DNA of 63,964 nucleotides, the filler included, from Stramenopiles sp. TOSAG23-6 (lineage: Eukaryota), in the NCBI GenBank assembly GCA_900128565.1. It is 3 parts of 3 records of this genome, joined end to end, with 100 filler letters (N's around TTAATTAATTAA, not from the genome) between each part and the next. Parts side by side here need not be neighbours in the genome. Positions count along the whole stretch, not along the records: positions 1 to 22,317 come from LT636016.1; positions 22,418 to 44,641 come from LT636017.1; positions 44,742 to 63,964 come from LT636052.1. One strand, written 5' to 3'. Below, piece after piece: positions 1-63,964 of the stretch. The notes under the pieces are model-generated. The model was not told the DNA's origin and did no database searches. It saw nothing but the letters and a program-made list of their open reading frames with translations. How positions within the stretch are numbered: the first letter of the stretch is position 1; each line of letters starts with the position of its first letter. The position numbers were made by a program, and so were the translations under genes.

Positions 1-55
1 GGTACAAAATTTCGTACGAAAAATAAATTCGAAATTGAAAAAAAATAAAACATAC
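1..55 (-). mobile_element. Introner-like intron, 5' part (cut by window edge)
   Basis: GTATGTTTT donor at 55 followed by family core. Confidence 0.8.
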
Positions 56-3000
56 TATAGTCACCTAAAGAACAAGCTCTATGGAATGCTGTTTCACCAA
101 GCACATCAGGTACAAATAAACAACCACCAAACTTGATAAATACTTGTATTAGTTTAATAGAACCAGTATTAACAGCAACATGCATAGATGTATATTTATT
201 TCGCATTTTTTTGCTTCTGTGATTGATGATAATTCCAGGTGAAATACCATAGAAACAACTCCGTTCATTTTTTTTGTTTTTTTCAAAAAATGATTCCAAT
301 TTTGATTTTATAAAAGGAAAATGATCATTATTTGTATCATTGTTTAAATTACATTTAATTGAATGTAATAACGATATTACTTCATCAGATAGACTTTGTT
401 TCATATTACTATAAGTCACACCTTTACAAAATTTATGAATGACATGCCATATGAAAAAATATTTCAAAAATTAAAATCGTTAGGTACGAAATTTCGTATG
501 AAAAAAAATAAATTAGAAATTCATATGAAACGTACATTGACAGCTTTAATTTGCTTTGCATATAATTTACAAATGTAGTGCCATTGGATTTGTCTTTGAA
601 TATTAAGATTTAAATAATAAAATGTATCAATATTATTTTCCACTAGTCCAATGCTTTTGTTATACCTGTATAAAGTAGTTATATTAGGTAATATACTCAA
701 CGGAATACGCATACTTTTCTGAACTAAATAACGTCTAACAACCTTTTGAATGAGTATAACTGCAAAGTATGCCGAATACAGAAATTTTGTTCTTGTTACT
801 GACATCTGAAAAAAGTCTATAATTCTTGAAACCATTTTGGAACATTCAACCTGAAACTTCTTTTTAGTATCCATGTGTAAGAAAAAAGAGGCACGGGAGA
901 TTATTCCTCTACAATGACTTTGTATTCTACTAATTAACAATGTCTTTTGAATTGTTTGTGTAATTATGCGTTTCGCACTGATTGTACCATCTTTAGGTTT
1001 TGCACTGATTGTTCCAGTTTTTTTAAAAAAATACAATGAAATTGCCCTTTTTAATATTGAAGTAGCTTTGTATTTCTTGGTCTTCATTAACATACTACGT
1101 TTAAATAAACATTGTTTCCATCTTGAAACAATAATCTTTGAAGCTATTATAATACCAAACAATGAAGATGAATGACTCAATGCACCATTTGCTCGCCACC
1201 AATTTACTATTACATTCAATGCTCTGCGTTTGTACCATTGGTCTATTCGAATTTGAAAGTCTGATTTTGCAAACAACATTGAATGACCCATCTTCCAATA
1301 CGTTTCGTGTCGACTATCATATTCATCATTACGTTTATTCGTCCCGCCATCAATTGCGGATACACAAAGGGAGTATATATTATTTCTAGCATTCAATACA
1401 TCATTTGTACACATCTCAGTGGATTCTGTAAAATATCTAGATGATATTGTATCTTTCCAAAATACATCATAATTTATTCGAAAAGGAAAACCATCTTTTC
1501 TCATTGCAACTACCTCCAAAATACCTGCATATAATAACTGTCTATACACTAACCTTTCATCATAATACACAAGACCATATACTGTGAAAAAATAGTTCAA
1601 ACGTTTGAAATTTGTTAGGTACAAAACTTTTAATAAAAATAAATAAATTTGAAATTGAAAAAAAATGAAATGAATGGTGAAAGTATACATCTATAGGTCT
1701 ATATTGTGATTCATTTGACTTGATACAATGCATATAGTGTGTGTGACTACGTTGAAGTGTACTCAAAACGCTCCCAAAATCGCTTGCATACTTTACTATT
1801 GCCGTAGTCCGATTATGAAGTTTTGTATCATTTTTTACATTTTTAGATGTGATATTTAATAGCTTGACTAAAAACTTATTATCAGACGAAGCACACAACT
1901 CAATAAGATTGTGAGTTAAACTATTTTCATTATACTGTAAAAATGTTTTCGAGTCATACATAACATCTCCAGCAAAATGAGAAATAGTAAATGTAGTCGT
2001 CGCTTTTTCATGTAATGTAGTCGTCGCTTCGTCATGTAATGTACCAGTTGACACAAAATTTCTCTTTAATTTTAAATACTTTGATGATTTGAGCTGTTTG
2101 CTATGTCGATTTCTACATGATTGACCTTGTGTCGTTTTGTGTGTATGAAAAAGGCTGGCACATATATCAACTCCATTTTTATTAGCATAACTTAAATCAT
2201 CCACCACCCGAAAAATACCATTGAATTCTGAATTCATCGTGTGTACTGTTTTATTATAATGTGTTTTGAACTGCATTTTACTTTCAAACGATTCACCATT
2301 AGTCTCTAAATCGTCATACATTTTACAATCTAATAAAGCACAACATGCATTGTTATCTTTGTAGATAATGTTACAATTGAACCCCTCCTTCTTATATAAA
2401 TTCATTTCTTCTTCAAATATTGCATCATTGTATAACTGGTACAACTTTTCATTGGCATAGTTTACACATAATGTATGTAATGAATTTTGGCTACTATCCT
2501 TATTATTTTGAAACCCTGATACATCTAAAACGCCAATAAAGTGATCTAATCTTGTACAACACGTCACAGCATTGCATACTTTGACTAACCAAGCAAATAG
2601 CTTGGCATAAATAAAACGAACTAATTTCCCCGCATTTTTTCTCAATAACAAAGAATCACTAGAGTGAATGGTAGTTTCACCATGTAATAATTGCAAATGT
2701 AAACTCTGTAAACAATTTGCTAAATTCTCACGAAAGCCTAAAATATTTGAAATATCTCTCAATACATGTTGAAACTCTAATTCATCATCCCAGACCTTCT
2801 CAATACATATACGACGTAGTTGAATACATGCACCTATTATTTTCCATAATTCGTCTTGTTCAGTTTTTGATACTCCAAGTATAGACAATATTGACGTTGC
2901 TTTACTTTTGATATTTTGTTCATTTTTCTCACTTTTATAATTCTTAGAATATTTTTCTTGTTTTAAATTCAAATGTTTTTCATTTTCAATGAGTTCTTGC

Positions 3001-4025: not shown

Positions 4026-4171
4026 TTTTACGTACAATTAAGGGTGAAACCTCAATTTTGTAATGACGCATTGTCTAAACCTAAATCCATGCCAAATTTA
4101 ACGTACAGATAGTATCTATGCCTACTACTATAGTACCTAGTACCCAGTACTAATGGAAAATTCGATTTGGA

Positions 4172-9870: not shown

Positions 9871-10951
9871 ATGACAACTGCAGCTATTGATTTTGTCCAT
9901 AGTCCTTCAATAATTGAAGTAGGGAAACAATTTTATCTATCGTATCAACCTCTGCGTGATGCTAGTGGATCTACAAGTAGTGCTTATATTGGTATATTTT
10001 CCCCAAACGAATCTGAAAACGAATTAAAAGCACGAAGATTTTATAAAGACGATATAGAATATCCAGAAAAGAAGGATTTACTTTGGGCATCAAATTATGT
10101 TCCAACAAAACCAGGTGTGTATGAATTTCGATACTATAGAAAACACACTTTGTTAGGTAAAAGTCCCGTTACAGTTGTTGCTAGAGGTCATGGGCCACAT
10201 CAGTCAACAGAGAGATATCCTTACTCTCAACGGGGAAATTCCACTTCATATAAAGTCACTATTTGTTCAAAGCACTCTCAAAGCTCATATTGGCCTGAGT
10301 ATCTCCCCATAGACAAAACACGATTTCTCATAATTGAAAGAAGCAAAAATGCTTCAGTTGTCGTGTATGATAGCAGTCCAATTCAAAATAATATCGTAAA
10401 TACTACAACTAAACATCCTACTGCCAGGATACGGTGGTGTTCATGGGGCTGGACGGCTGAGCCCGAGTATAATAAGTTGAATTATATCCAAAATCAAATT
10501 GCTTATGGTCTGACCCTAACAAAGTCATTACAATGCCCTTCAAAATCCCACAATACGTCTGTCGATAACAAAAACGACTGTCCGGATGAAACTGATGTTG
10601 TTGCATCATATATTGTAAAGATGGTTGCAGTTCCAGAAATGGAAGCTAGATTAGAAATCTTGAGGGATGTATTTTTTTTTTTTTTTTTCAATTTCAAATT
10701 TATTTTTCGTACGAAATTTTGTACCTAACGATTTTTTTTTTTTTTTTTAATATTTTTTCAAAATACATGGGACTTCAATTTTAGTATGTCTGGTAGATTG
10801 TGGTGAAATTATTTTACATAAACTATTCATTTGCACTAAAGAAAGATTTCTTAATCCTATACCAAAAGTTGTTTATGTTGATTTATATGGAGAAATTCGT
10901 GCAACAAGGAAATCAATAGTTTGGAGATATAAAAAAACAAAAGAAAAATAA
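9871..10951 (+). CDS. DUF4833-like protein with N-terminal SKICH-like segment
   Basis: IIERSKNASVVVYD, LNYIQNQIAYG, PKVVYVDLYG. Inferred exons 9871-10668 and 10769-10951. Confidence 0.7.
10669..10768 (+). mobile_element. Introner-like intron GT..CAT
   Basis: GAT|GTATTT..AAAATACAT|GGG; next AG leads to a stop. Confidence 0.85.
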
Positions 10952-12218: not shown

Positions 12219-15200
12219 ATGGCGGCCTATCGGCCTTGGTTAGTATACATACGTGTTTTAATTATATATTGTTTTATTAGTTGTAATGGCTTTGTTGGAG
12301 GTTTTTTTAGTGATAGAAAGCAAGAACCTATGAAAAATGTCAAGAAACATGACGAAAATAGCTTCACTGTCGACGGTAATGATGGAACTGACTTGCATGT
12401 CAGTGATACTACGACTCAAAATGATGCATTCGATTCAACACCTAATATGAACTCACGGGAAATATTAACTTTGCATGGTGCACCAGAGCAACATGAACAT
12501 ACCTATGATGATATGGATAAAATTCGCAAAGAGAAAAGAATTCAACGTCTCCGTCGTCGACTCACTACAACTGATTTCCTAGGAAGACGCGCAGATGACT
12601 TTTATGATTATGCAACAGCATCATCACATGCTACCTGGATTAGTGATACACGCAATGATAAAACTGGACAAGATTTGATTACAGCAAGTTCTTATTTGCG
12701 CTGTAAAGCAACCCATAGATGTCCTTGGGCAAGAGTTGAATATGATGTGCAAGGAATGAAATACGAATTCACCAAAAAGGCTTTCAACACAGGTCGTTGG
12801 GATTCTATACCTCTATTTACTGATTTTGAAGATTGGTATGCCGGTACACACGGATGGCTTCATTCACCGGATGTTTTGGCTGCACCAACAATGAGCACTG
12901 TGATTCATGACCATGACTCTTTAAAAACAACACAGAAATGGCGTAGTTCTCAACAACCCTCAATTTCACGAGGTTTAAACCCAAACGATTTCGTTTCTTC
13001 CGGAAAGTTACTTGTAAACACTAAAGTAACAATGCATTTTGTGACATCTGGTGCAATACCGACTCTAACAATTGGTACTACTGTTTTCAATGGAGTAGTC
13101 GCTACGACTACATCAAGTACAAAGGTTGCGTTGTTTAATTTCGATTCCATTTCTATATCAAAACAAGTCTCAATAACAGCCGAGGGAAATCGTGCTTTAG
13201 TCATTAGTAGTAAAAGCACAATTATATTTGATACTACATTTACTATATTACCTGGTACACTTGGCGGTTTTCCAGGTACTGATGGAAGTCCATCAATCAA
13301 TAATGTAACAGGTCCTGGTAGCGGATCTATACGTCTATATTTACATACAATTACAACATCTGCTGATGATATCGATGAAGTTCAGATAATTACTACTTCT
13401 GCAGATTCTGGGCAAAATTTAGGTGGTACGTTTACACTCACTTTATCATATTGTGAACGAAGTCGTAGTGAGGGAGAGGGTGGGGATAGCCATGATCTAG
13501 ATAAAAATACTGAATCAAATGATGCAAAGTCAACAGATGGCTTATTTTTACCAGGTACCATTGTATATGATGCAAAAACTAAAGAATCGTGTACAGTACT
13601 GAATAAAAATGAAAGTGATGCTTACAAATGGATATCAAAAACTACACAAAAAATATCTCATGATTCTTCTGCACTTCTTGTATCGAAATATTTAGGTGAT
13701 CTCAGTATAATCTCTTCTAAAGTACGTGTTGGTCGGTATGTTTTATTATTTTCAATTTCGAATTAAATGTTTTTTTCATACGAAATTTCATACCTAACGA
13801 ACTAAAAAAAATATATTTTTTCACAATACAGTAATATTTCTGACCAACAAGGTGGTCATGTTTGGCGAGTTACATTTGTTGATGCTGTTGGAGATGTGCC
13901 TCAGATACAACCTACTTCATATTTAACTGGTATTGGTGCAAAAATTGAAACAGATACCTATGAGGAGGGTAATAATATTGGAGGTTCCTTTAGTATTGAT
14001 TTTTTACAGGGTACTACAAGATCTTTACCATATGATGTATCTGCCGAAGCAATGGCTACTGCACTAATGGAAGATATTGAACTCGTTAAACATGCACGTG
14101 TTTCTAGACTAGATCCGTATACGTTGCAAATGTGTAGTGTTAGTAGTAGTAGATGCCAAGGGGGTGGACCAATGCCTAGTTATGGCTATAAATGGTCAAT
14201 TACGACGACTACGACGTCGAATAATATTTCTCCAACGTCACCTACATCATCTAATATTGGAGAAAAGGGACAAAAACAAGTAATGACGATAAAAGATAGT
14301 GGAACTTCATTGACAGGTATTGGAGTTAGTATAAAAGTGGACGAAGGACATACTTTACATAATTCGGCCTCATTACATTCATTTTCAACATTTTACCCTG
14401 GGGATGGTTCAAATGAAAAACATTTCTCTTTGGCATTTGGCGGTTCTGGGGGTAGTTATGGTGGTCTTGGTGGAAAAGGGCATTCTCACATTGATGTTGG
14501 TCCAATGTATGGAGACGTTCAAGTGCCAGACATTTTTGGTGGGTCGTCTGGAACAGTCGGAGGTATTCATCCTAGAGAAGTAATATCTGCTTTTTCATCG
14601 GCAACAGATAATCCTACGGGTGTAGGTGGTGATGGTGGTGGCGCTATAGCTTTTGTCGCAGTAAATGACATTATATTTGATGTCAATACAAATATTGAAG
14701 TTAATGGAAAAGAAGGGGGATTTGGGTACCGAGGTGGAGGCGGGGGTAGCGGAGGTACTATCATTATAGAAGCTGGTGGTAGTATACGCCAACATGGAAG
14801 ACTATCAGCTAAAGGAGGTGATGGTGGTGGTTCAGTATTAAGTTCAACTGGTGCAATGGCTGGTGGTGGTGGTGGAGGAGGAAGAATCTTTATAAAATCT
14901 CAGACATTGGATACAAAAAATGATAATAATATCGAAATTGGTGCTACTATTGTAGATGGAGGGAAAGGTGGTGAAATAGGTGATTCAAGTTGTAGAGGAA
15001 TAGCTACGGGAGTATGCACAGGAGGTGATGGAAATTCTTGCCTTGCAGTAGATGGGTGTGTATGGAGTGGACATGTATCTAGCCATTGCAGTGGCGCAGC
15101 TGTTGCAACAAATGCATGTGATGGTATAAACATTACTACATGTGAAAATGTTGTTGGTTGTAGTTGGATTTCTACTGCAGGATCATGTAGTGATTCATCA

Positions 15201-26464: not shown

Positions 26465-26572
26465 ATCTGTCTTTCTTAAAACCTATCAAAAAAATCAAAT
26501 TCATGTTCAGATTTTGTTTATTAGTATCAAAAAAATCAAATTCATGTTCAGATTTTGTTTATTAGTATAATG

Positions 26573-44549: not shown

Positions 44550-44641
44550 GTACTTATTTTTTTTTTCAAATTCGATTTTTTTTTTGTACGAAATTTTGTA
44601 CCTAACAAATTTTAGTTTTTTTTTTTTGAAATATTTTTCCA
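44550..44641 (+). mobile_element. Introner-like intron, 3' end lost in gap
   Basis: TAT|GTACTT followed by family core. Confidence 0.7.
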
Positions 44642-44741
44642 NNNNNNNNNNNNNNNNNNNNNNNNNNNNNNNNNNNNNNNNNNNNTTAATTAATTAANNN
44701 NNNNNNNNNNNNNNNNNNNNNNNNNNNNNNNNNNNNNNNNN
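44642..44741. other. Artificial gap linker N44-TTAATTAATTAA-N44
   Basis: Same linker as at 22318; joins two oppositely oriented genes, each broken inside an intron. Confidence 0.95.
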
Positions 44742-44842
44742 AAAAAATATTTAAAAAAAAATCTAAAAAAAATCGTTAGGTACAAAATTTCGTACAAAAA
44801 AAAAATCAAAAAAAAAAATCAAAAAAAAAAATCAAAACGTAC
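44742..44842 (-). mobile_element. Introner-like intron, 3' end lost in gap
   Basis: AAT|GTACGT followed by family core. Confidence 0.7.
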
Positions 44843-49900: not shown

Positions 49901-50608
49901 ATTTTGGTAGCAAAAGATTCGACATTATTAGAAAAGACTCATATACATGTGTGTTTTATTTTTCGTACGAAATTTTGTACCTAACGATTTTTTTTTATTT
50001 TTCAAAATTTCAAAATTTGTCTACATTTTTTTTTTTTGAAAATTTTGTACCTAACAAATTTTTTATAATTTTTTTGAAATATTTTTCCAAAATACACTTT
50101 CGAGGAGAAAAAGAGGACAGGAACAAAGATAATAAAACACAACAAAACATTATTGACTTGGCAACAAATGTTTCTATAAAATATATATATGTTTAATATA
50201 TTTTTTTTAAACAAAAAAATCGAATTTTTTTTTTTTTGGTAAAAAAAATTTTGTACCTAACAAATTTTTTATGATTTTTTTTTTTGAAATATTTTTCCAA
50301 AATATATGTTTGCAGGAAATGAATTTGCAAATGTTCCGCCAACTCATGAAAACCTACAACGACTGAAGGAATATATTGAAAAAAATCGAAGCATTGTGGC
50401 AGAGATTTGGGCTATTTCTAACCCTATTAAAAATGTTGGAGATGTATGTTTTAGTTTTTTTTTTTAAATTTTGAAATTGAATTTTTTTTTTCATACGAAA
50501 TTTTGTACCTAACAATTTTTTTAGATTTTTTTTTTCAAATATTTTTCCAAAATACATGTACCATACCAAAAACAAAAGTTGGATAAACGACGACAAAATG
50601 ATGAGTGA
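46926..50608 (+). CDS. Unknown secreted protein, about 930 aa, 8 introns
   Basis: Signal-peptide-like N-terminus. Open frame through exons 46926-48489, 48585-48650, 48747-48784, 48889-49238, 49345-49404, 49510-49948, 50098-50186, 50308-50443, 50558-50608. Confidence 0.7.
48490..48584 (+). mobile_element. Introner-like intron GT..CAT
   Basis: CAT|GTATGC..AAAATACAT|TG. Confidence 0.85.
48651..48746 (+). mobile_element. Introner-like intron GT..CAT (near-identical to previous)
   Basis: CAT|GTATGC..AAAATACAT|TA. Confidence 0.85.
48785..48888 (+). mobile_element. Introner-like intron GT..CAT
   Basis: CAT|GTACGT..AAAATACAT|GAT. Confidence 0.85.
49239..49344 (+). mobile_element. Introner-like intron GT..CAA (in-frame AG at 49350 is possible)
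   Basis: CAT|GTATCT..AAAATACAA|A. Confidence 0.7.
49405..49509 (+). mobile_element. Introner-like intron GT..CAT (near-identical to previous)
   Basis: CAT|GTATCT..AAAATACAT|C. Confidence 0.85.
49949..50097 (+). mobile_element. Introner-like intron GT..CAC with duplicated core
   Basis: CAT|GTGTGT..AAAATACAC|TTT. Confidence 0.75.
50187..50307 (+). mobile_element. Introner-like intron, AT..TAT by alignment (alternative 50191-50305 GT..TAT)
   Basis: ATATGTTT aligns with GTATGTTT; both models restore frame. Confidence 0.6.
50444..50557 (+). mobile_element. Introner-like intron GT..CAT
   Basis: GAT|GTATGT..AAAATACAT|GTA. Confidence 0.8.
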
Positions 50609-51377: not shown

Positions 51378-54086
51378 ATGGTACTAGATTTATCTCTTCT
51401 TTGTACACTTAAAACTAAATTACACGCTTCTCTTACAGACACTCCATTTTCCAGTGATACTGTTTCTTTAGATTCACGCTTTCAAGCAACAAAGATTGCC
51501 TTCGAGTCAACAGTTCAAGAATGTCTCTCAGCGAACCTTACAAAAGCTGATGCTACTGCGGTCTTAGAATCATCTCTACGCGCTGCTGTATCCAGCTTAA
51601 TTCAACAGGCTAAATCTGAAAATTTATCAATGAAACAACTTGGTTTTGAAAGTTTACTTGACCTTGCCATGAAGCTTGCAGCTGATGGCACTATCACTCC
51701 CGTTGCAACTATTCATATGTTGGAAGAAGTGTTCGAAACACAAACAATTGATTGTTGTGAAGATATCTGGGGCATATTGGAGGATAGACGTGATGAACTC
51801 TCCTCATCTATTTATTTTACAGACAATCCAAACCGAAATTCAAAAAGTAAATTAGCTCTATTGAGACTTTCTAATTCCCTACTACGACGATTCTCAAAAA
51901 CAAACGATACTGATTTTGTCGGTCGTGTTTTACTTTTTCTTGCCTATATATACCCATTATCTGAAAAATCTGGTGTCAATATTACCGGAAAATATAACGA
52001 TGCAAACTTAACTTTGTTTGAAAATGACGAAAATGAAAATGACGAAAATAATAAAGACAAATCAACAGAAACAACAACTTTGAAGGAAGCCAATTCTGAA
52101 AAATCTCTACCCGTTGATATTTTATTATACAAAAACTTCTGGGCATTACAAAATCATTTCTCAAATCCAAACGAGACATTGAAATCTAAAAGTAATTGGG
52201 ACGATTTTCTCTCTAAAATTGAAAAAGTAATTGTTGCTTTTGAAGGTCATAATTTTAAACAAACTTCAAATGAATCCAATGTTCAAAATGTTCAAAATGT
52301 TCAAAATGTTCAAAATGGTACGAAATCGTCTGAAAAAAAAGTGTATTATTATTGTACAAAATTTTTAACAAAAAAAAGTTTATTACGATTGCAACTAAGA
52401 GATCCTGTTTTACGACGTCATGTATTTTTTCATACGAAATTTTGTACCTAACAAAAAAATTTTAGATTTTTTTTGAAATTCAAATTTATTTTTCATACGA
52501 AATTTTGTACCTAACAAAAATTTTTAGATTTTTTTTCAAATTGTACAAATTGTATACCTAACCAATTTCGAATTTGATATTTTTTTTTTGACCATTCAGG
52601 TTTTAGTTCAAATGCTTGTTATTTTTGAATATTATACAAAAGTTTTATGTTTATCTTCAAATACAAAACTTGAAAAAGTTTCATTAACAAATTCGTCGAA
52701 TTCTTGTACGTTTTCAACATTGAATTGTAAAAAAATTTTAAAAAAATTAAAAAAAAAAAATTTTTACAAAAAAAAAATTTTTACAAAAAAAAATTCATAC
52801 CTAACAAAATTTTTTTTTTTTTTTTTAATATTGTTCAACTGTTCATCTCCTCCATCATCTACAGCATTAGCACCCACAACATCCCAATCTGTTGGGGAAA
52901 CAAAATTAAAGGAACAACTAGAGACTTTCAATGCCATTCAAACATTAGCTCCATTTCGTGAACGTGTCACAAAACTGCTCAAGGAAACTCCCCCAAGTGG
53001 TGAAAAATTTTTAGAAACAGTGACGAGTAATTTTTCATCATACTCTTCAAGTTTTTTTTTTTTTTTTTTTATAGTAAATTTTGTACCTAACAAAAAAAAT
53101 TAAAATTTTGGAATTATTTTTTCACAATTTATATATTTTGTCTAGAGAACTTTTTTGGATTCGTTGGAAGACGAATCGATGCAAGCCTTATGACAGACCT
53201 GCTATACCTGCACCAGTATGTTTTCAAAATTTTTTTTGTTTTTTGTAAGAGATTTTTGTACCAAACAATTTTTTTTAAAAAATTTTTTTAAAAATTTTTT
53301 TTTTTTTGAATTTTTTTTTTCGGAAAAACATTTTAAAATTCTTAATAAATTGTACAAAAAAAAATATTTCCTAATAGTATATAAACTGAAACGGAAGCGA
53401 AAACGAATAGATGATGTGTCAAATGCTCGTCGATTAAGTCAATTAGCAAAAACATATGAAAAACATGTTTGTTATTATCATCTCTTTGAATAACTTTTAT
53501 ACCAAAAAAAAAATTTGTTAATTTTTTTTTTGTACGAAATTTTGTACCTAACAGTTTTTTTTTTATTAACAAAAAAAAAAAAATATTTTTCACAATTCAT
53601 GATAATATTGCTTGTTTGTCAGAAAAAACTCGATTGACATCTCAGTCATTAGAAACTTTCCTACAACCAATGAGAGATGCAATGGATCCAGAAAATTGTA
53701 TTGAAGATATATATCATCCAAAACATGATAAAGTATTTTGTTGGAGAGGTTTACGTTTAATTTGTATGTTTTTTTTTCATTCAATTTTTTTTAGAAAAAT
53801 TTTTTTTTAGAAAATTTTCAAATTCTTTTTAAAAAGATACTTTTTTATCTAATAGAAAATATCAAATGTGTAATGTTTTGTTTACAATATAGCACAGTCA
53901 AACTTCAAAGTATTTGAGAAAATGCATTGTGGTGGTGGTAATTTAGAAGATGCCATTAAAATTATTTCAAATTCAAAAAAAAATGTTGATTCTACTCCTA
54001 ACCCAAATGATATTGAAAAAAATGCTTCGCAGTCAACTTCAATGGATATTGATGTGACGCCAAATCAAACTAAAACTACAAAATAA
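51378..54086 (+). CDS. THOC1: THO complex subunit 1
   Basis: LLRLSNSLLRRFSK..FVGRVLLFLA..PLSEKSGVN, LYKNFWALQ, LQLRDPVLRRHVLVQ, ETPPSG..NILSRE..W..WK, WRGLRL. Exons 51378-52421, 52600-52705, 52847-53026, 53133-53215, 53383-53466, 53601-53763, 53893-54086. Confidence 0.92.
52422..52599 (+). mobile_element. Introner-like intron GT..CAG with three TACCTAAC copies
   Basis: Restores THOC1 RRH|VLVQ. Confidence 0.9.
52706..52846 (+). mobile_element. Introner-like intron GT..CAT
   Basis: TT|GTACGT..GTTCAT|CT; in-frame length, poly-A/T interior. Confidence 0.7.
53027..53132 (+). mobile_element. Introner-like intron GT..TAT
   Basis: GA|GTAATT..CACAATTTAT|AT restores ETVTNILSRE. Confidence 0.85.
53216..53382 (+). 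mobile_element. Diverged introner-like intron GT..TAT
   Basis: CCA|GTATGT..ATAGTATAT|AAA; TAG 5 nt upstream is out of frame. Confidence 0.75.
53467..53600 (+). mobile_element. Introner-like intron GT..CAT
   Basis: CAT|GTTTGT..CACAATTCAT|GAT. Confidence 0.8.
53764..53892 (+). other. Intron GT..TAG (diverged)
   Basis: Restores WRGLRLIS-QSNF. Confidence 0.85.
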
Positions 54087-54592: not shown

Positions 54593-57500
54593 ATGGTTTG
54601 TATAGTATTCACAAGATATGTAGTACTTCTAATACTCATACACTTACAAAGGAATATAGAACAATGTTTTTGTGTTACCAGTGATGATATATCTAGTGAT
54701 ACTCCTGGTGATGATATATCTAGTGATACTCCTGGTGATGATATATCTAGTAGTGATAGGAGTTCTCCTGGTGATGATACAACAAAGAATAATCAAATTG
54801 TAAAATATGCCGAATTACAAGAAGCTCTAGAAAACGCCCAAAAAATGGGTGTGGTTGGAGTTTCTGATATCTCAGAGTCTATACGAAAAATAGGTGGACA
54901 ATTTTATGGAAATCCTTTGGATGAAGAGTCAAATCTAAGTACAGACAGAGCAGAAGAAGAAGAAAAAAATGGAATTCTCTCAGAAGACTCAGAAGAAACA
55001 AATGAGAATGAGAATCAAAATGAGAATCAATCAAATAGATTATCTTCACTTGAAGAGGATGAAGCGATGGGTGAAGATATTACGATTCCCTTCTGGGGTT
55101 CACTAAATAATCCTAACGCTGACGCTGATGTGTTTTTAACTGAACAATGTATATTTTATTTTTTTTTGTTTTCGAAAAAAAAAATCGAATTTTTTTTTAT
55201 AGTAAATTTTGTACCTAAACTAAAAGATTTTTTTTTTTTTTTGAAATATTTTTCCAAAATACATTTAATAAAGTTCATCATTATCTCGGATTAACAGATA
55301 ATGACTTTGAAGAGAAAAAACATAAAAATTTGGAGTCTTTTACTAGTAGTAATGATTTGAAGGAACGAGGACTACAAGAAGAAATCAAAAAACAAGAAGA
55401 AAAACAAGGAATATTCAAACATATCATTGAAATCTTGGAAGAAAATATAGAAAACGTAAAAACAATTGCATATCCAACTCCATCGCAAGAAGTAAATGGC
55501 GGAGAGAGTTCTAATGAAGCAAACGCAGTACATGGTGAAGAGAGTTCTGATGAAGCAAACCCAGTAAATGATGGAGAGAGTTCTGATGAAGCAAAACCAG
55601 TAAATGGTGGTGCAGTCGATGGTGCAAATGGTGAAGAGAGTTCTGATGAAGCAAAAGCAGTACATGGTGAAGAAAGTTCTGATGAAGCAAAAGCAGTACA
55701 TGGTGAAGAGAGTTCTGATGAAGCAAAAGCATTAAATGGTGGTGCAGTCGATGGTGCAAATGCTGGTGGTACTTCTCCAGAAGAAAAAGTAGAACAAAAA
55801 ATAAAAGTAGAAGAAAAAGACGCATATAAACAAGAAGGAGAACAAGAAGGAGAAGAAGAAGAAGACGATGATGATGATGGTGTTGATAATAGACTCGTTA
55901 AAAGAATAGAAACCACTTATGGAACGACTTGGAAGTACTTACCAAGCGATGGTAATACTGTGGGTTATAACCTCTTGAATATCAAACAATCCAAGAAAAA
56001 ATTTAAGGAAGACCTGAAAGCTGCTGATCGTCAACATGTAGAAATGTTTGTGAATGAATACCTTGATAATAAGCCGAAGGAAAAAAAAGAAATTTTTTCC
56101 ACACACGTAGGTTACATCTTTCATACTTCATTTCAAATATATATAGGCTACATTTTTAATACTTCATTTCAAATATTGTGTTATCACAAGAAAACCTCGA
56201 AATCAATTTTTTTGTTCCTAACAAATTTCCAAAACTTTTTGTTTTTATACAACACATGGTGGTTTCTTAAGAGGTCTATTATATGTAATAATGATAAAAA
56301 CACAAACTACTTCTTGTACAATCACATCAAGCAACACAGAAATTCAATTTCCTCTACGACAAGAATGTATGTTTTATTTTATTTTTTACAAAAAAATCGA
56401 ATTTATTTTTTCATAGGAAATGTTGTACCTAACAAATTTTAGTTTTTTTTTTGAAATATTTTTCCAAAAAACATATGTTGAGGTACAATGTTTCAACGAT
56501 ACTCAACCTACATTTTCTTTTGCATTATATTCAGGGTCTCCAAAATCAGATTTAGTTGACAAAGAGTTTGTCCTAGATGTATGTTTTTTTTTTTAATTTC
56601 GAATTTTTTTTTCGTACGAAATTTTGTACCTAACTATTTTTTTTTTTTTNGGNAAAAAAAAAATATTTTTCATAATCCATAACATAGATATAGGCAAAGG
56701 AGACGAAAAACAACAAAAAAATATTGCCAAAAAAAAAGCCAAACGAATAGACAAAGACACAAAAAAAATTAATAAAGATATTTTGTATGGAATAATTGGT
56801 AATGGTGCGTTAGTCCTTTTACAATATTCAGATTGTGAGACCTGGTTTATACGTCATTTTCCTTCTATATCAAATGTATGTTTTTTTAAAATTTTTTTTT
56901 AAATTTTTTTTTAAATTTTTTTTTCGTACGAAATTTTGTACCTAATAATTTTTTTATAATTTTTTTTGAAATATTTTTCCATAGCAAATGTATATGATGT
57001 CTTTGGAAGTTTAAGGAAATTTAGAAAAGACCCAGAATTAATTTCAAAAGGTATGCATAAATTTTTAGAAAAAATGTACATTTACATTTTACAATCAATA
57101 TTATTTTTATTTTTCCCCTCTTGTTTTATTGGCTTTATTCTCTTTATCCAAAGCTTCTGGACACTAATAAATTTCGAATTTGACATATTTTTCAACAATT
57201 TTTGGAGAACGCATATAACGAAAAAAAAAAGGTGAAAGAATTTTTCAAAATTTTTTATGGAGTTGTACAAAACCACGAAACACGTGTGTTTTATAGTGGT
57301 CTGACTCGAACCCTACAAACGTAGGTTTTTTCATTTTAATTTCAATTTTTTTTTTTTTCGTATGAAATTTTGTACCTAACAATTTTTTTTTTTTTTTTGA
57401 AACTATTTTTCACAATACATATTTGTTATAATGAAATTGTTTATTGGTTCACTAACAGAAGGCTGGAAATGTGACTGTCTCATGAAAGACGCTGAAGCAG

Positions 57501-60263
57501 AGGCAGGAAACAATACAGATTTAAAATGTGATCATACATTTCAATTAGAAATCAATAAAGATTTTAAATGTGATTCAAAAGTCGATGAGATGAAAAATGC
57601 TTCAACAAGAAAATTAAATTGTCTTAATTTAATTTCAGAAATTCCATCATCGGATCCAGCAAATGGAACCGGTGAGTCTGTTTCTAGGAATACGAAATCT
57701 TTTGTTGCAAATGTTATTGCAGATATTCTACCTGGCGAACCCAAAAGACATATTATTATGACAGCCGCAATATCACCCGTGTTGGCTCTTGAAGCGATAT
57801 TTGTTCTTCCTGCCGCAGCAATTGGTAAAAAAGCGCAAATGCTCATTTCAAGCTTTAAGAAGAAAACGTTCGATAATACTTTCAATAATAAAAAAAANGA
57901 GAAGTTTCTAAATAAACTTAAGACAAAGTGTGGTCAAAATGAGGATGCTGATACTAGTGATGATACTGATGATGGTGGTAATGGTGGTAATGGTGGTATT
58001 GGTAGTGCAAATACTGGTGGCACTACTGCAGAAGAAAAACTTCAACAAAAAATAAAAACAGAAGAAGAAGAAGAAGGAGGAGAAGGTTCTGGAAATGATC
58101 CTGAAGATGATAGTGATACATCTACTGAAGATGATAGTGATGATGATAGTGATGATAGTGATGATGGTGGTAATGATCGTACTGGTGGTGCAGTCGATGG
58201 TGCAAATGCTGATGGTGGGGCACCAAAGGTGGCCAAACATATTATAGATGAAAGTGATGATAATAATTATACTACTGGTGGTGATGCAGACAACAATCCT
58301 ACTGATGGCGGTGATGATAGAATTGATGAAGAAGGACCAGCTCCAGGACCAGCTCCAGGACCAGCTAAGGGTCATACGGACAGTTGGCCGGCCTCGATGT
58401 ATGAGTCTTTGGATAGTAGGGGTGCTCCAAGTGGGCCAAGTGGGCCAGGAGACTTGATTACTGCTTCAGAGGAGGGTAACGTGGCATTAGTTGAAAAACT
58501 TATCAAAGAAAAAACAGCTGTGAATCTGATTGATAACGAAAAAGACTTTCTATTGATTAAGTTTGTGAATCAGATTGATGACGAAAAAGAAACTCCATTG
58601 ATTAAGGCTTCAAGGAAGGGTCATCATAAAGTAGTTAAACTACTTATTGATGCTGGTGCTGATGTCAATCAGACTGATGAAGACGGAGGTACCGCATTGG
58701 ATAAAGCTTCAAATAAGGGTCACGCAAAAGTAGTTGAATTACTTCTTGCCGTAAAGGGAATTAAAGTCGATGCTGATGTAGGAATGGGGTATACTGCATT
58801 ATTAAATGCTTCAGCGAGCAGAGAGAGGGGTTGTGCAAAAGTAGTTAAATTACTTGTTGATAAGGGTGCTAAAGTGAATCACAAATCGCATTTCGGAAAG
58901 ACCGCATTGACAATAGCTTCAAAGAATCGTAATGTTGGAGTAGTTGAAGCACTTCTCGCTGCTAAAGATATTGATGTCAATCTGGCTGATAAAAGCGGAG
59001 CTACACCGTTGTCAATTGCTAAAAAGAATCATAATGATAAAGTAGTGAAACTACTTGTTGATGCTGGTGCAGTTGATGAAACGAAAAAAGCTGGCGTACC
59101 AAGATTTCGAGAAACATCAAGAAAAATGTTTTCAAAAGGAAATCATTTCAATGATGGAAGCATTAATAGAATGAAAAATGCGCATCTTTTAATTCATTTT
59201 GTAATGAATAAGTTACAAATGCAACTATGCATGTTTTATTTTTTTTTTTGTATGAATTTTTTTTTATAGTAAATTTTGTACCTAACAAATTTAAGTTTTT
59301 TTTTTTCAAATATTTTTCCAAAAAGCATTACTAATCAAATCGAAAAAAGAGGAACAAATTCTTCACTTAAGACTCGAAATATTTCAAAATAGTGTAGCAA
59401 GTCGAAAGAGTAAACTTGAAACATCATTAGCAATGCAAGAATTAGCTCGTGAGAAAGTTCAAAATGCAAAAAAACGGATTTTGGAATTGGAGGAGAAAAT
59501 CCATAATGTCAAAAAACAACGAGAGTTAAGTAAATCATATAGTTTAGGATCTGATTACTCCCCTTCAGATGATGATTTTGAAATATCTCTTCGTGAAACA
59601 TCTCAATCTCATAATGTACATAAATATGACGATGATGATCAAGATGATCAAGATGATGAAGATGATGAAGATGTAGACACATTTTATCATAAAACATCTC
59701 ATAATTCACATAAATATGACAAAGTAAATATCAATAATGAAAATGATTTCACTGATGAGCAGGAATCAACCTTCAATGCAGATGAAATATTCAAGGAAAT
59801 AAGTATGAATGAAGAAAATCAATCATTAAATGATTCATTTGGATCATCTAGAGGTAGTCTTCCCATTGAAACAAGTCATCAACTTCGTCGAAAAAAAAGT
59901 ACGTCACTTGTATTAGATGCAACACATGAGGCTGAGAGAATGATCAACAAACTCAAATCTGAATTACATCCGAGTAGTGTAGAGGGAACTCATGTTCTTA
60001 AAGCGTTGACTAACGCTGTATCTGCAATTAAATCAATTAGAAGTGCAGCACATGATACGATGAAAGATGTATCTGTTGTTGATGTACAAAATAGACTTTT
60101 ACAACCAATAGTGAGTTACTCTGCAATGCCAGACTGTCTTGCAAATGCATCCATGGCAGATCAAACTATTGGAAATATTTTTGCTGCTGCTGTAAAAAAG
60201 AAAGGAAGTGGGTTTAGTGGTTCACAAGTCATTCTTCCAGCGGAAGGTATGTTTTATTTTTTT

Positions 60264-60310
<47 letters not shown>

Positions 60311-61697
60311 CGTACGAAATGTTGTACCTAACATTTTTTTTTTTAAATATTTTTCCAAAATGTATGTAGTACTAAACCCTGCAAAACCGATTTATTCTTA
60401 AAATCAATGGTACCTAGAGAAATAAAGCAATTGCAAGCTGTACACTTTGGTAAACATTATATACAATATCCTTATTCTGTCATGTCTCGATTATATGGAA
60501 CTGCGAAATTTAAAAAAACGACATGTATGTTTTAATTTTTTTTTTACAAAAAAATCGATTTTATTTTTTTTTTTTTGGTAAAAAAATTTTGTACCTAACA
60601 AATTTTCAAAATTTATTTTGAAATATTTTTCTAAAATACATGGCTTATAATGGATCATTTACCAAAATGCCCATATTCCAATCAACCTCCTTTATTTTTT
60701 GATTTGAAAGGGGCAGATGAAAACTCAAATCCTCTTTGTTTTACACCTGAATATCGACGAAAAAATGTATGTTTTATTTTTATTTTTTAAATTTGAAATT
60801 GAATTTTTTTTTTACAAAAATTTTGTACGTAACAAAAAAAATGTAGATTTTTTTTTGAAATATTTTTCCAAAATACATGCATTGTGTCATGATTTGGAGT
60901 GGGAGAAAAATATAATGGATATTCAAAAAAAAGAAAGAGTATTTGGTGATCATAATGGGAAAGACGAAAGTGATAATATATTTGAAACTTTATGGCAAGA
61001 TACATTGTGGATGCAAAATAATGGACTCATGGATTATTCAGCAGTATTGTACGTTTTTATTATGAATTCAAGTTTTTTTTTTTTTTTTTGGTTTTTGTGA
61101 AAAAAAAAATTCAAAAAATTTGTTAGGTACGAAATTTCGTATGAAAAAAAAAATTAAATTTTTTTTTAAATTTTTGATGAAAACATTTCACATTACATGG
61201 GAATTTGTCCTTTTGTGGACACTCATATGAATAAGTTATTGAAACTTGCTCTGTACTTAATACAGGAGGAAAGTTTATCATGTACTGAAGTAAAATCATT
61301 ATTTACTCGTCAAAAGTTATCTGATTTTAATTTTAATGAAAAACATGTATGTTTTTTTTTTTTTAACAAAAAATTCGAATTTTTTTTTTTTGAAAATTTT
61401 GTACCTAACATTTTTTTTTTTTTTTTGAAATATTTTTCCAAAATACATGATATTGATTTTGATAATATTAAATTAAACAAAAACTTTTTCCCCTCAAAAA
61501 TGGTAAAGAATATAAAAGAACAAAAGTATGGTCGGAATGAAAGCAATAACCAATATAGCACAGAAGAATTACGTAGATGTTTGTCATTTCTTCGAACAAA
61601 TGATGATAATGCTGAAAATCTACGATGGCACACCCATCGTTTTGATTGTAATTCTTGTATTCTTTTGTATTGTTGTATTTCTAATTCTGTCATTTGA
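54593..61697 (+). CDS. Multidomain protein: signal-like N-terminus, acidic repeats, ankyrin repeats, coiled coil, PIP5K-like domain (about 1850 aa, 13 introns)
   Basis: Ankyrin TPLIKASRKGH and GTALDKASNKGH; PIP5K-like GSGFSGS, FLKS, SRLYG, FDLKG, MDYSAVLGI. Exons 54593-55148, 55265-56106, 56258-56366, 56475-56578, 56681-56875, 56990-57050, 57215-57320, 57421-59228, 59329-60246, 60366-60524, 60642-60766, 60879-61048, 61199-61346, 61449-61697. Confidence 0.7.
55149..55264 (+). mobile_element. Introner-like intron GT..CAT
   Basis: AAT|GTATAT..AAAATACAT|TT. Confidence 0.8.
55495..55770 (+). repeat. Coding tandem repeats GEESSDEAKAVH / GGAVDGAN
   Basis: 36-bp units directly visible. Confidence 0.9.
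56107..56257 (+). mobile_element. Diverged introner-like intron GT..CAT with duplicated 5' part
   Basis: CAC|GTAGGT..AACACAT|GGT. Confidence 0.65.
56367..56474 (+). mobile_element. Introner-like intron GT..CAT
   Basis: AAT|GTATGT..AAAAACAT|AT. Confidence 0.8.
56579..56680 (+). mobile_element. Introner-like intron GT..CAT
   Basis: GAT|GTATGT..AATCCAT|AAC. Confidence 0.8.
56876..56989 (+). mobile_element. Introner-like intron GT..AAT
   Basis: AAT|GTATGT..CATAGCAAAT|GTA; TAG is out of frame. Confidence 0.7.
57051..57214 (+). other. Intron GT..CAT without clear family core
   Basis: AAG|GTATGC..CACTAAT..ACGCAT|AT restores frame. Confidence 0.55.
57321..57420 (+). mobile_element. Introner-like intron GT..CAT
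   Basis: AAC|GTAGGT..CACAATACAT|A. Confidence 0.75.
59229..59328 (+). mobile_element. Introner-like intron GC..CAT (or GC..AAG ending at 59325)
   Basis: TAT|GCATGT..AAAAGCAT|TA; both ends are in frame. Confidence 0.75.
60247..60365 (+). mobile_element. Introner-like intron GT..TAT
   Basis: AAG|GTATGT..AAAATGTAT|GT; TAG 4 nt downstream leads to a stop. Confidence 0.85.
60525..60641 (+). mobile_element. Introner-like intron GT..CAT
   Basis: CAT|GTATGT..AAAATACAT|GG; using the next AG would delete FDLK. Confidence 0.88.
60767..60878 (+). mobile_element. Introner-like intron GT..CAT
   Basis: AAT|GTATGT..AAAATACAT|GCA. Confidence 0.85.
61049..61198 (+). mobile_element. Intron GT..CAT with inverted family core
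   Basis: Restores MDYSAVL-GI; interior reads GTTAGGTACGAAATTTCG on the sense strand. Confidence 0.75.
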
Positions 61698-63916
61698 ATA
61701 TCTCCAATGTTGCTACTTGGATCATATAAAGTATTATTCTCATTATCCTTATTATTAATATTTTCCGTATTTTCTAATTTTGTTGTATTTGTTGCAGTAC
61801 CAAATATTTGATGTGTAACGTTACCAAACATATGATTTGACGTATTGTTTTTTGTATCTAATGTTTTTTGTTTCAATGATACCCCAAATGACTTTGCTTC
61901 TTGTGCCTTTTGTGCCATATGACTACGTATATCATTTGCATTCAATGCTTTGGCTTCTATTGCTAAATCTTTTGCTTTTTTTTGTGCTTCTTCAACTTTT
62001 TGTTTTGCTTTTTCAGTAGTCTCAATGGCAAATTCAGTGGCTTTCTCCTTTGTTTCTGCCGCAATGATTGCAGCTTTCTTCTTAGCTGCCTCAGCAACAC
62101 GACTTCCAGCCTTAAAAATTTCAGACATGGTTATGTTCCCATCTTCATCGAGATCAATTTCTTCCATCGCCATTGCTTTCGCAGATTGTACATAACGACA
62201 ACAAGTAATGTATTGTGAAAACATATGAAACACTCAAAATTTGTTATTATAATACATTTTGAATTAATTATAAAAAAAACAAAACATTCGAAATTAATTT
62301 CAAAAAAAAAATGTTAGGTACGGAATTTCGTATGAAAAAAACAAAACACATACATGAATGGTTTTGAAATCTTTATGAATATTCGACCAATTCTTGTTTT
62401 TGACATTTTTCTTGTAAATGCATTACATCGTTCAAAAGGACCAGGATATGTATAGTGAAAAAAAAAAAAACGTTACAAAATTAAATTAGTTTATGAAAAA
62501 AAAAATTTTACAAAAAAAAAAAGTTTTTACAAAAAAAAAAAAAAATCTAGAGAGAATTATTTACATGTTCGTTTAAACCATGATTGTCTTCCACGATAAT
62601 CTGGTACATCATTAAGCTCTAATTCTTGAATAGTATTAGATTTTGTTGCTTCTGTTAAAACAACTGCATGAGCACCTGATCCAGACTCTCCCATTGAATA
62701 AAATAACCAATCCATGGCATGACGTACACCTATTCGTGAAAAAACGTAGAAAATAAAAAAAAAGTATTAGGTATGAAATATTTTTACGGAAAAAAAAAAT
62801 TAAAATTTTAAAAAAATTTTTAAAAAATTTTCAAATTTTAAAAATTTCAATCAAAATTCATTATGAAAACGTACCAACACCACGAGGATGTTTTCGTGTT
62901 GTAAGAGCTTGGAGAGGGAGAATTCTCCAAAATCGTTTCGGTTTTTTATTTGATTTACTTTTTGTTTTGTTTTGTGTATCATCTATCAACGGTTTTGAAG
63001 ATCCTAAAATTTTTTTTAATTTTAAATATGTCGATAACAAACCTGTTCGCATAGCTGTAAACTTATCCTGTTTTGAAGCTAAAACTAAAAGAGGCACTCA
63101 TGTTATTAAGAAAATATTTCAAAAAAATTCTAAAAAATTTGTTAGGTACAAAATTTCGTATGAAAAAAAAAATTCATAGTAAAAAATAAAATAAAAACAT
63201 ACCATTTAAAGATGCATCTCTTGATATCATTTTTAATTGAGCTCTGGCAGTTTCAAAAGAAGAAAGTTTCGATACTACAATAGACTTGTTATATGTCAAA
63301 TTTTAATGAAAACATGTCAGGTACAATATTTCGTACGAAAAAACTAAAAAAAAATAAATTCGAAATTTGATGATAAAGTACCTGATGAATCTACGAAAAA
63401 TATTATGCCATCTGTTCCAGGAAAATATTTAGACCAATGTTGTTGGATATGTTCTTTTCCACTTATTTCCCAAAATTGTACCTATAATGAGTGAAAAGAA
63501 ACGTTTTAAAACATTTGATTTTTTTTTGTTAGGCACAAAATTTTCATACAAAAATGAATAAAAAAATGAATAAAAAAATGAATAAAAAAATGAAAAAAAA
63601 TACATTTGAAATTCATGATGAAAACGTACATTTCTGTTTCCATACCGTACAGTGCTTATAGAGAGAGGGGCTACTGTTGGTTCAATACAAATTGTGAAGA
63701 AATATTTTTGTTTTGTAAAAAAAAAAAAAAGTTAAAAAATTAATTTTTTTTTTTTTGAAATTTAAAAAAAAAATTTAAATGAAAACAAACTCGATGTGAA
63801 GGTCGGTACAACCCTCTGCGTTTTTTCCTACGACTTCCATTGTTGTATGCATCTCGTCCATCATCATAAGGTTGGTCTAAAACTTGTTTAATAAATGCAG
63901 TTTTTCCAGAATTGAC
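61310..63916 (-). CDS. ARF/ARL-like GTPase with long C-terminal extension (EF-hand-like motif, coiled coil); 5'-truncated by window, 3' end uncertain
   Basis: NSGKT, IEPTV, FWEISG, WSKYFPGTDGIIFFVDSSD, PLLVLASKQD, GVRHAMDWL; DLDEDGNITMSE. Exons 63916-63791, 63686-63630, 63481-63382, 63292-63203, 63099-62875, 62729-62565, 62447-62354, 62207-61310. Confidence 0.8.
61347..61448 (+). mobile_element. Introner-like intron GT..CAT
   Basis: CAT|GTATGT..AAAATACAT|GAT. Confidence 0.8.
62208..62353 (-). mobile_element. Introner-like intron GT..CAT
   Basis: CAT|GTATGT..CACAATACAT|T. Confidence 0.8.
62448..62564 (-). mobile_element. Diverged introner-like intron GT..CAT
   Basis: CAT|GTAAAT..CACTATACAT|AT. 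Confidence 0.75.
62730..62874 (-). mobile_element. Introner-like intron GT..TAG
   Basis: Restores GVG-VRHAMDWL. Confidence 0.85.
63100..63202 (-). mobile_element. Introner-like intron GT..CAT (in-frame GAG 3 nt further is possible)
   Basis: ATG|GTATGT..ATAACAT|GA gives LNGVPLLVL. Confidence 0.8.
63293..63381 (-). mobile_element. Introner-like intron GT..CAT
   Basis: CAG|GTACTT..TTGACAT|AT restores ARF VDSSD; next AG is out of frame. Confidence 0.85.
63482..63629 (-). mobile_element. Introner-like intron GT..TAG
   Basis: AAT|GTACGT..TTATAG|GTA. Confidence 0.85.
63687..63790 (-). mobile_element. Diverged introner-like intron, GT..TGT by alignment
   Basis: CGA|GTTTGT..CACAATTTGT|ATT; no in-frame AG nearby. 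Confidence 0.6.
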
Positions 63917-63964
63917 ATGTAAAAAAAAAATATTTCAAAATTTTTTTTTTTTTTTTTTTGTTAG
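63917..63964 (-). mobile_element. Introner-like intron, 3' part ending CAT (cut by window edge)
   Basis: CTAAC..TTTTACAT|GTC, followed by VNSGKT. Confidence 0.75.

Follow-up and report, generated by a model that had tools for sequence, protein, structure and literature searches.

The stretch of DNA analysed here, referred to as the window, comprises 63,964 nucleotides from Stramenopiles sp. TOSAG23-6 (GCA_900128565.1) and contains many copies of a short intron-like repeat, a candidate mobile introner whose members mostly begin with GT and end with AT. It is AT-rich eukaryotic DNA with a G+C content of 28–41%, and consists of three contigs joined at 22318-22417 and 44642-44741 by N44-TTAATTAATTAA-N44 blocks. 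These blocks resemble artificial linkers and carry stops in all frames. The contig ends at both linkers all fall within copies of the repeat. Open reading frames (ORFs), long under the standard code, occur on both strands and include, as judged from long ORFs and Pfam, a kinase, a myosin head, RING/RAWUL, THOC1, ankyrin, CRAL_TRIO and EMC7 genes, together with NUDIX, two MIP channels, asparaginase and thioredoxin. Pfam gave no family for the ORFs at 46893-48707 and 55219-56439, and Rfam and tRNA scans of the window gave no match.

A repeat family of intron-like inserts

An nhmmer search seeded with one copy returned 45 matches to a single repeat family of 90–180 nt, in good agreement with an earlier note on this DNA which had reported about 50 related inserts of this size. 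A 17-nt core, with two mismatches at most, is present 41 times, whereas 100 shuffles lead one to expect 0.04. All counts of ends and frames given below refer to a curated set of 39 complete copies with both ends fixed; about ten further copies stand outside this set, being cut by contig ends, linkers or the window edge, or having uncertain ends. Copies share a common layout composed, in order, of a GTATGT-like start, a T-rich stretch, a palindromic centre, the sequence TACCTAAC, a second T-rich stretch and an ACAT end. The branch-like motif resembling TACCTAAC is present as the earlier note described, at 29–49 nt from the 3′ end in 33 of the 39 copies rather than at the 35–50 nt or so given there, and a CT[AG]A[CT] motif is found in 35. 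Every curated copy lies in the sense orientation relative to the ORF it interrupts (39/39), which bears out the near-universal sense orientation noted previously. Only two of the 45 nhmmer matches lie on the opposite strand, one being partial and falling on the palindromic section of E30 and the other the inverted core of E39.

The copies are listed below in window coordinates. Upstream exon bases are in lower case before the slash, figures in brackets are the open codons on either side of the cut, and each line closes with the evidence used.

E1, 1..55, minus: 5′ part, ta/GTATGT, continuing past the window edge; family match
E2, 444..535, minus: myosin gene, at/GT..AT; frames (385,147) at aligned cut, spliced model without stops
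E3, 1577..1688, minus: myosin head, at/GT..AT; frame join, domain scores
E4, 10669..10768, plus: at/GT..AT; frame join
E5, 13736..13831, plus: cg/GT..AG, with AG where other copies have AT; frames (519,1861)
E6, 21950..22056, minus: tt/GT..AT; frames (83,115)
E7, 22264..22317, minus: 3′ part with ACAT end, cut by linker; family match
E8, 22418..22469, minus: 5′ part, at/GTATGT, cut by linker; family match
E9, 24341..24450, plus: directly before a possible start codon, ends uncertain (ACAA); family match
E10, 24808..24906, plus: ahead of the CRAL_TRIO exon, with ACAT as 3′ end and the 5′ end at either 24808 or 24818; family match
E11, 34536..34628, minus: at/GT..AT; frames (452,235)
E12, 40202..40292, minus: at/GT..AT; frames (81,140)
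E13, 41073..41164, minus: ct/GT..AT, in-frame AG 6 nt downstream; frame join, AG scan
E14, 44550..44641, plus: 5′ part, at/GTACTT, cut by linker; family match
E15, 44742..44842, minus: 5′ part, at/GTACGT, cut by linker; family match
E16, 44944..45105, minus: composite with two branch-motif units, at/GT..AT; frame join
E17, 48490..48584, plus: at/GT..AT; frame join, gene chain
E18, 48651..48746, plus: near-identical to E17, at/GT..AT; frame join, gene chain
E19, 48785..48888, plus: at/GT..AT; frame join, gene chain
E20, 49239..49344, plus: at/GT..AA (in shifted register AT..AC); frame join, gene chain
E21, 49405..49509, plus: near-identical to E20, at/GT..AT; frame join, gene chain
E22, 49949..50097, plus: composite, at/GT..AC; frame join, gene chain
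E23, 50191..50307, plus: exception with ATATAT end; in frame only with the 3′ cut 2 nt upstream, still AT
E24, 50444..50557, plus: exception, aligned cut out of frame in chain; in-frame options GT..AC at -2 and GT..AT at +7
E25, 52422..52599, plus: THOC1, three branch-motif units, at/GT..AG; junction fits homologue
E25b, 52706..52846, plus: THOC1, tt/GT..AT; variable region, homology not decisive
E26, 53027..53132, plus: THOC1, ga/GT..AT, register unambiguous; conserved ILSRELFW codons needed in exon
E27, 53216..53382, plus: THOC1, ca/GT..AT, register unambiguous; gapless spacing against homologue
E28, 53467..53600, plus: THOC1, at/GT..AT; homologue alignment
E29, 55149..55264, plus: at/GT..AT; frames (189,392)
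E30, 56367..56474, plus: exception, aligned cut off by one with the 382-codon upstream ORF; frame tests
E31, 56579..56680, plus: at/GT..AT; frame join
E32, 56876..56989, plus: at/GT..AT; frame join
E33, 57321..57420, plus: ac/GT..AT, probably in the 5′ untranslated region (ATG follows); gene context
E34, 59229..59328, plus: at/GC..AT, +2 C with -4 G; frame join, gene chain
E35, 60247..60365, plus: ag/GT..AT, register unambiguous; AG 4 nt downstream out of frame
E36, 60525..60641, plus: ankyrin/PIP5K-like gene, at/GT..AT; frame join, gene chain
E37, 60767..60878, plus: at/GT..AT; frame join, gene chain
E39, 61049..61198, plus: tt/GT..AT, core inverted relative to ends; frame join, weak Pfam match
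E38, 61347..61448, plus: at/GT..AT; frame join, gene chain
E40, 62208..62353, minus: at/GT..AT; frames (39,299)
E41, 62730..62874, minus: tg/GT..AG; frame join
E42, 63100..63202, minus: ARF-like gene, tg/GT..AT, in-frame AG 3 nt downstream; AG scan
E43, 63275..63381, minus: ARF-like gene, ag/GT..AG; frame join
E44, 63482..63629, minus: ARF-like gene, at/GT..AG; frame join
E45, 63685..63790, minus: ARF-like gene, ga/GT..AT; weak frames
E46, 63917..63964, minus: 3′ part with ACAT end, start past the window edge; family match

The curated copies begin with GT (38) or GC (1) and end with AT (32), AG (5), AA (1) or AC (1), proportions close to the 39 AT, 5 AG, 2 AA, 1 AC and 1 GT that had been tallied by eye from 48 copies. 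At the donor, whose consensus is GTATGTTT, position +1 is invariably G, +2 is T in 38 and C in one, and +5 is G in 29 and C in two. At the other end, -4 is A in 28 copies, -3 is C in 29, T in nine and A in one (a pyrimidine in 38/39), -2 is A in all 39 and -1 is T in 32, G in five, A in one and C in one. Of the possible readings of the 3′ end, YAT at the aligned position is the best conserved. The exon context, (C)AT/G, is deduced from the flanking bases, with C at -3 in 20, A at -2 in 29 and T at -1 in 30 copies upstream and G at +1 in 20 downstream; AT stands immediately 5′ of GT in 26 of the 39. The ends form inverted repeats, ATGTAT...ATACAT, in which pairing is possible between +1 and -3 in 38/39 copies and between +2 and -4 in 33/39. 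One double change across the paired ends was observed, in E34, where C at +2 is accompanied by G at -4.

Copies are unevenly distributed, with roughly 30 in the 19-kb third contig, and two ORFs of 1869 and 2056 codons have no internal copies, except for E5 at the start of the former. Curated copies are spread over the myosin, THOC1, ankyrin/PIP5K-like, ARF-like and unnamed genes. Some are composite, with two or three tandem core units each including the branch-like motif: E16 (44944-45105), E22 (49949-50097) and E25 (52422-52599). In E39 (61049-61198, plus strand) the ends are in the sense orientation and the core is inverted, leaving the coding strand without TACCTAAC. The centre of the family is a near-perfect palindrome, which may permit core flips of the type seen in this copy. 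Near-identical neighbours are found 161 nt (E17/E18) and 166 nt (E20/E21) apart and have from 7 to about 25 nt of upstream exon in common, which points to a local copying of exon together with intron and not to independent insertions. Two members outside the curated set are also of note. One, at 24096-24221 (plus strand), at the end of the ORF 23523-24149, starts with ag/GTTTTC, ends with GTAT and includes an internal partial second unit. The other, at 37250-37400 (minus strand), is a degenerate relic with two mismatches in the core and no GT start, and overlaps the NUDIX ORF of the plus strand at its 3′ end.

Predicted removal at the aligned ends

When the three frame shifts were compared, the cut at the aligned ends was strictly the best in 33 of 39 copies, tied in two and not the best in four, about 13 being expected by chance. 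The gene at 46893-51011 is open through six of its eight junctions. In the ankyrin/PIP5K-like gene a single frame runs through E34, E35, E36 and E37, meets a stop inside E39 if this copy is not removed, and resumes through E38. Tested singly, the E39 cut is in frame with 113 and 166 open codons; since searches of PDB sequences were unhelpful (two PIP5K-like exons gave nothing useful), this junction rests on frames and on a weak Pfam match which ends at the predicted exon end. Models of the THOC1 gene cut at five elements (E25 as GT-AG; E25b, E26, E27 and E28 as GT-AT) and of the myosin gene cut at two are both free of stops. The restoration of frames claimed in the earlier note thus stands for THOC1, myosin and the PIP5K-like gene; the CCDC61 gene also named there could not be confirmed, no Pfam family being found, and the ARF-like gene is too divergent for its junctions to be fixed. 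The intron at 60525-60641 which had been attributed to THOC1 is in fact that of the ankyrin/PIP5K-like gene (E36).

Homology provides a more stringent view of certain junctions. A profile-free search with the first THOC1 exon as query identified a homologue, P0093 (580 amino acids, 55% identity), with which the spliced THOC1 model aligns without gaps from before E26 to after E28, for a score of 1304. Use of the nearest in-frame AG instead reduces this score to 1262 for E26, 1290 for E27 and 1245 for E28, losses of 42, 14 and 59 respectively; moving E25b to AG gives 1309, this variable stretch not being resolved by homology. The exon which follows E26 corresponds, from its first residue, to positions 324-348 of the Pfam family efThoc1. 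The first AG after E26 is out of frame and lies inside the codons for ILSRELFW, part of a motif which was matched, as a regular expression, in 26 of 150 THOC1 homologues. In the myosin head, domain 2 scores 62.7 bits with E3 cut at the aligned ends, 49.6 bits with the in-frame AG at +39 and 37.2 bits unspliced. In general, joining to the first AG at least 10 nt past the branch motif leaves only 10 of 32 copies in frame, no more than chance would give, and a canonical spliceosome scanning for AG does not fit. Taken in silico, these results support the view that most copies would have to be removed at a 3′ end other than AG.

A number of observations weigh against removal at GT-AT ends. P0093 is itself a predicted gene model, taken from a collection of eukaryote proteins. 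Within their gene chains, E23, E24 and E30 do not stay in frame when cut at the aligned ends, E30 being brought into frame by GT-AC at -2 or by a canonical GT(+4)...AG(+8), and in none of the three can the options be told from an indel in a short exon. By ORF length alone, the aligned cuts of E26 and E45 are not the best. For most copies, in-frame GT/GC-AG pairs exist within 45 nt if extra codons may be lost, and homology excludes in-frame AG alternatives only for E3, E26, E27 and E28; the case against AG in the other copies is therefore statistical. The consensus is uncertain in places, with some 40 single N bases scattered over 23981-40538 in the second contig and a few over 56650-57898 in the third. 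The conserved ends may stem from recent common descent and not from selection. Cuts as GT-AT, TG-CA or AT-AC yield the same mRNA in 22 of the 32 copies ending in AT, and among the six for which no shifted register is possible (E26, E27, E33, E35, E42 and E45), E33 may lie in an untranslated region, an in-frame AG follows E42 at +3 and the frames around E45 are weak. Finally, protein and metagenome-contig searches revealed no transcript-derived protein or contig: exon 48889-49236 had no match among proteins, nor did exon 59331-60245 among longer proteins, and the best match of the myosin exon showed 27% identity, without a close relative. Metagenome contigs matched neither a protein query nor the 21-nt core motif, viral contigs did not match this motif, and contig searches uncovered no related locus for a presence/absence comparison of copies.

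Some features of the host genes and of the records can be added. On the minus strand, the myosin head ORF (1563-4037) is immediately preceded by a protein kinase ORF (4888-7131). Proteins named myosin III, in which a kinase is fused to a myosin, give the best matches to the myosin part, at only 22–28% identity. The two MIP (aquaporin-like) ORFs, 38019-38585 (minus) and 38911-39480 (plus), are divergent and about 330 nt apart. Among sequencing runs, the share of sampled words was 0.80 and 0.73 in two small DNA runs of one sample, which may be the source of this DNA, 0.23 in a seawater metagenome, 0.12 and 0.11 in other DNA runs and 0.09, 0.06 and 0.05 in three metatranscriptomes, which match parts of 47000-56900; none of these values is used as evidence for expression or habitat.

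Register, nature of the element and alternative explanations

The frequent AT before GT, and with it the ambiguity of register, had been overlooked in the earlier note, as had the inverted termini resembling those of miniature inverted-repeat transposable elements (MITEs). The 3′ AT belongs to the element and is not a copied target, since it is kept when the upstream bases differ; the AT upstream reflects either a preferred site of insertion or the duplication of a fixed 2-nt target. Duplication of any target longer than 2 nt was considered and rejected: bases -3 and -4 of the 3′ end do not track the upstream exon bases. Further MITE-like features are the palindromic centre, the multi-unit copies, the copy with an inverted core and the near-identical neighbours. 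When eight copies were folded as RNA, the terminal helix, which includes two exon bases, closed the minimum-energy fold in seven, with z-scores from -2.4 to +0.5; as the folds are not clearly better than those of shuffles, we do not claim a structure-guided mechanism. Neither an autonomous partner nor an empty site was found in this analysis, and the mode of spread is for this reason only inferred.

We consider it fairly probable that the inserts are copies of a non-autonomous mobile introner with MITE-like inverted ends, removed by splicing at G...T ends which are mostly GT-AT. Such an element would move as DNA and insert into genes, preferentially in the exon context (C)AT/G, and would be tolerated there thanks to its removal in pre-mRNA splicing. 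Every copy would supply its own GTATGT-like 5′ splice site, the TACCTAAC branch-like motif, a T-rich tract and a Y-A-T end, mostly ACAT. Cutting immediately 5′ of GT and 3′ of the terminal T would leave U as the last intron base, where almost all known introns have G, and in the second step, presumably that of the major (U2-type) spliceosome, a contact between G(+1) and U(-1) would perhaps replace that between G and G. Since five copies carry G at this same position, the machinery seems to accept both YAG and YAU. Removal at the RNA level and the exact G...U termini are read from DNA here and should be taken as predictions. Of the proposal in the earlier note that YAT acceptors form the majority class, removal at non-AG ends and the dominance of YAT within the family are upheld by the frames, THOC1 and the myosin profile; for the whole genome the claim is a conjecture. 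That the major spliceosome of this lineage routinely finishes the second step on YAU, with GT-AT as the main intron class derived from a still-spreading introner, may well be true, although we advance it tentatively and would stop short of calling it probable.

The choice of register is central to this reading. Most copies could instead be AT-AC introns with both cuts displaced two bases upstream, or TG-CA introns, with true GT-AT introns forming a small minority or being non-functional. The AT found before GT in 26 of 39 copies and the equivalence of the three registers in most copies ending in AT are compatible with such a shift, E20 (ACAA) and E22 (ACAC) would become regular AT-AC introns, and the compatibility of A(+1) with C(-1), established in yeast and mammals, also counts in its favour. 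In E6, E13, E25b and E39 the ambiguity is narrower, GT-AT and TG-CA cuts giving the same mRNA and AT-AC a distinct one. A shifted 3′ dinucleotide would however occupy -4/-3, where A (28/39) and C (29/39) are less conserved than A at -2 (39/39), and the ten copies ending in AT without an upstream AT would acquire unrelated ends (TT-AC, CT-AC, GA-TT, CA-AT, AG-GT and similar). Moreover, E5, in frame and flanked by ORFs of 519 and 1861 codons, reads GT-AG at the aligned positions without a shift, and homology to P0093 backs the unshifted register for E26 and E27, which together with E35 are the clean unambiguous cases in view of the caveats attached to E33, E42 and E45. We therefore regard a shifted register as unlikely; the six unambiguous copies, the AG at the aligned end of E5 and the near-invariant +1 G, +2 T and -2 A appear to favour unshifted GT-AT. 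It is very unlikely that splicing is canonical after all, with a GT donor joined to a nearby AG and AT a mere terminus of the element. In-frame AGs can indeed be found (+6 at E13, +3 at E42, +9 at E17), and E30 has a possible solution of this kind, but the first AG past the branch motif is in frame no more often than by chance, against 33/39 for the aligned cut, AG options cost the THOC1 alignment 42, 14 and 59 in score and the myosin domain 13 bits, and the first AG at E26 falls out of frame in conserved codons. E4, E21, E36 and E38 have no in-frame GT/GC-AG alternative in the scan, nor does E23, for which the reference frames are unreliable. Even more improbable is that the inserts are not introns at all and reflect DNA excision of the ciliate germline-limited type, dead genes or assembly artefacts. 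In layout, with inverted ends and a short direct repeat of AT on either side, the element is what one would expect of DNA that is precisely excised, and contig ends fall inside copies; yet DNA excision has no cause to follow gene orientation, which all 39 copies do, and the copies carry donor-like and branch-like motifs. The flanking ORFs are open under the standard code at all copies, unlike decaying genes, and the copies vary by substitutions and in unit number, which is atypical of an assembly artefact.

The last alternative concerns the spliceosome involved: the copies could be U12-type-like introns, the minor spliceosome accepting GT-AT and the copies being transposon-spread, as proposed for Physarum. 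The branch consensus of U12-type introns and that of yeast U2-type introns both resemble the branch-like motif of the element, which counts for this alternative, and U12 branch sites lie about 10–20 nt from the 3′ end. What is reported here and below from publications followed by a citation is limited to parts of these sources. GT-AT is a recorded U12-type pair (PMC1557818; Larue et al. preprint), representing seven of 66 non-canonical U12-type introns; Sheth et al., who cite experiments in which this pair was productively spliced by the U12 machinery, also note a U2-type GT-AT intron that is conserved (PMC1557818). In Physarum, GT-AT accounts for 17% of 1,014 non-canonical U12-type introns, for which an origin from a TA-flanked inverted-repeat transposon is proposed, and the branch adenosine is weighted at -12 to -10 (Larue et al. 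preprint). Against a U12 assignment, the 5′ site of the present copies is GTATGT with G at +5 in 29/39 and not RTATCCTT, the branch-like motif is 29–49 nt from the end in 33/39 rather than some 10–20 nt, and a T-rich tract precedes the 3′ end. On these grounds we find U12-type removal improbable. As for U2-type features, a GTRNGT-like donor and a CTRAY-like branch before a pyrimidine tract are present and the YAG end is largely absent (AG in 5/39). The donor, distant branch-like motif and T-rich tract look like those of a yeast-type U2 intron, although GT-AT as a pair is best known from the U12 type.

If GT-AT splicing were confirmed at the RNA level, a single mobile element would have filled genes with introns ending in U instead of G. 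The base most conserved at 3′ splice sites would here have been relaxed in nature while the 5′ GU was kept, providing a natural test case for 3′ splice site recognition (U2AF small subunit, Prp8, Slu7/Prp18 and pairing of the first and last bases), in which the end sequence of a transposon either forces the spliceosome to adapt or exploits its tolerance. With GT/GC-AG as a requirement, gene finders and introner surveys would get most genes of such a genome wrong and overlook the family.

Comparison with known systems

The earlier note did not recognise a described system. A literature search found no description of GT-AT as the main class of a lineage or of an introner family, although supplementary tables of introner surveys, which were outside this search, could list one, and the branch-like motif used as a search word returned only primers and similar sequences. 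To this extent the claim of novelty holds, with the qualification that GT-AT as such is a documented rare pair, chiefly of U12-type introns.

Yeast U2 introns have a GTATGT donor, a TACTAAC branch and a YAG acceptor. The copies described here resemble them in donor consensus, in a branch-like motif containing CTAAC and in a branch-to-3′ distance of tens of nucleotides, and differ in their last base, T in 32/39, and in the extra C of the branch motif. With the U12-type GT-AT introns, including those of Physarum, they share the terminal dinucleotides, and the source put forward for Physarum is likewise a transposon whose inverted ends are flanked by a repeat of 2 nt; in those systems, as far as the cited parts extend, GT-AT is a small minority and accompanies a U12-type donor and a branch near the 3′ end, whereas here it is the main class of the family and is associated with a U2-like donor and a distant branch motif.

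The introners of Micromonas, Aureococcus, dinoflagellates, Acanthoeca and others, which are spliceosomal introns derived from transposons, appear similar in many respects (PMC11282704; Gozashti 2022 preprint): they occur as many near-identical short copies in the sense orientation at unrelated sites, with inverted termini, a short direct repeat at the boundary and element-borne splice signals, and their removal restores the reading frame. In the portions of these sources drawn on, their ends are GT/GC/GA...AG, in contrast to AT in 32/39 of the present copies. The curation of a 2025 introner survey, in the part considered, listed only AG and AC as 3′ sites (PMC12130899). Surveys which start from annotated introns would probably miss the present family.

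Non-AG ends including AT (AG-AC, AG-AT) are found in the MITE-derived introns of the tunicate Fritillaria borealis, which are removed in spite of these ends and also have inverted repeats and boundary duplications (PMC11282704; Soo et al. 2025 preprint). Introns of that system start with AG and show many dinucleotide pairs, whereas here, in a different and AT-rich eukaryote, the 5′ end is GT/GC in 39/39 with a single dominant YAT. In Amoebophrya introners, inverted repeats pair the ends and direct repeats of a few nucleotides over the border render the cut ambiguous, as here; that account reports no dominant dinucleotide pair and a U1 that was not found (PMC7789003), in contrast to the near-invariant +1 G, +2 T and -2 A and the yeast-like donor of the present family. 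Unlike the DNA elements eliminated in ciliates (internal eliminated sequence type), all 39 copies are in the sense orientation and the flanking repeat is AT and not TA. Finally, the nonconventional introns of euglenids have no conserved GT and pair +4..+6 with -8..-6, whereas in the family described here GT is near-invariant.

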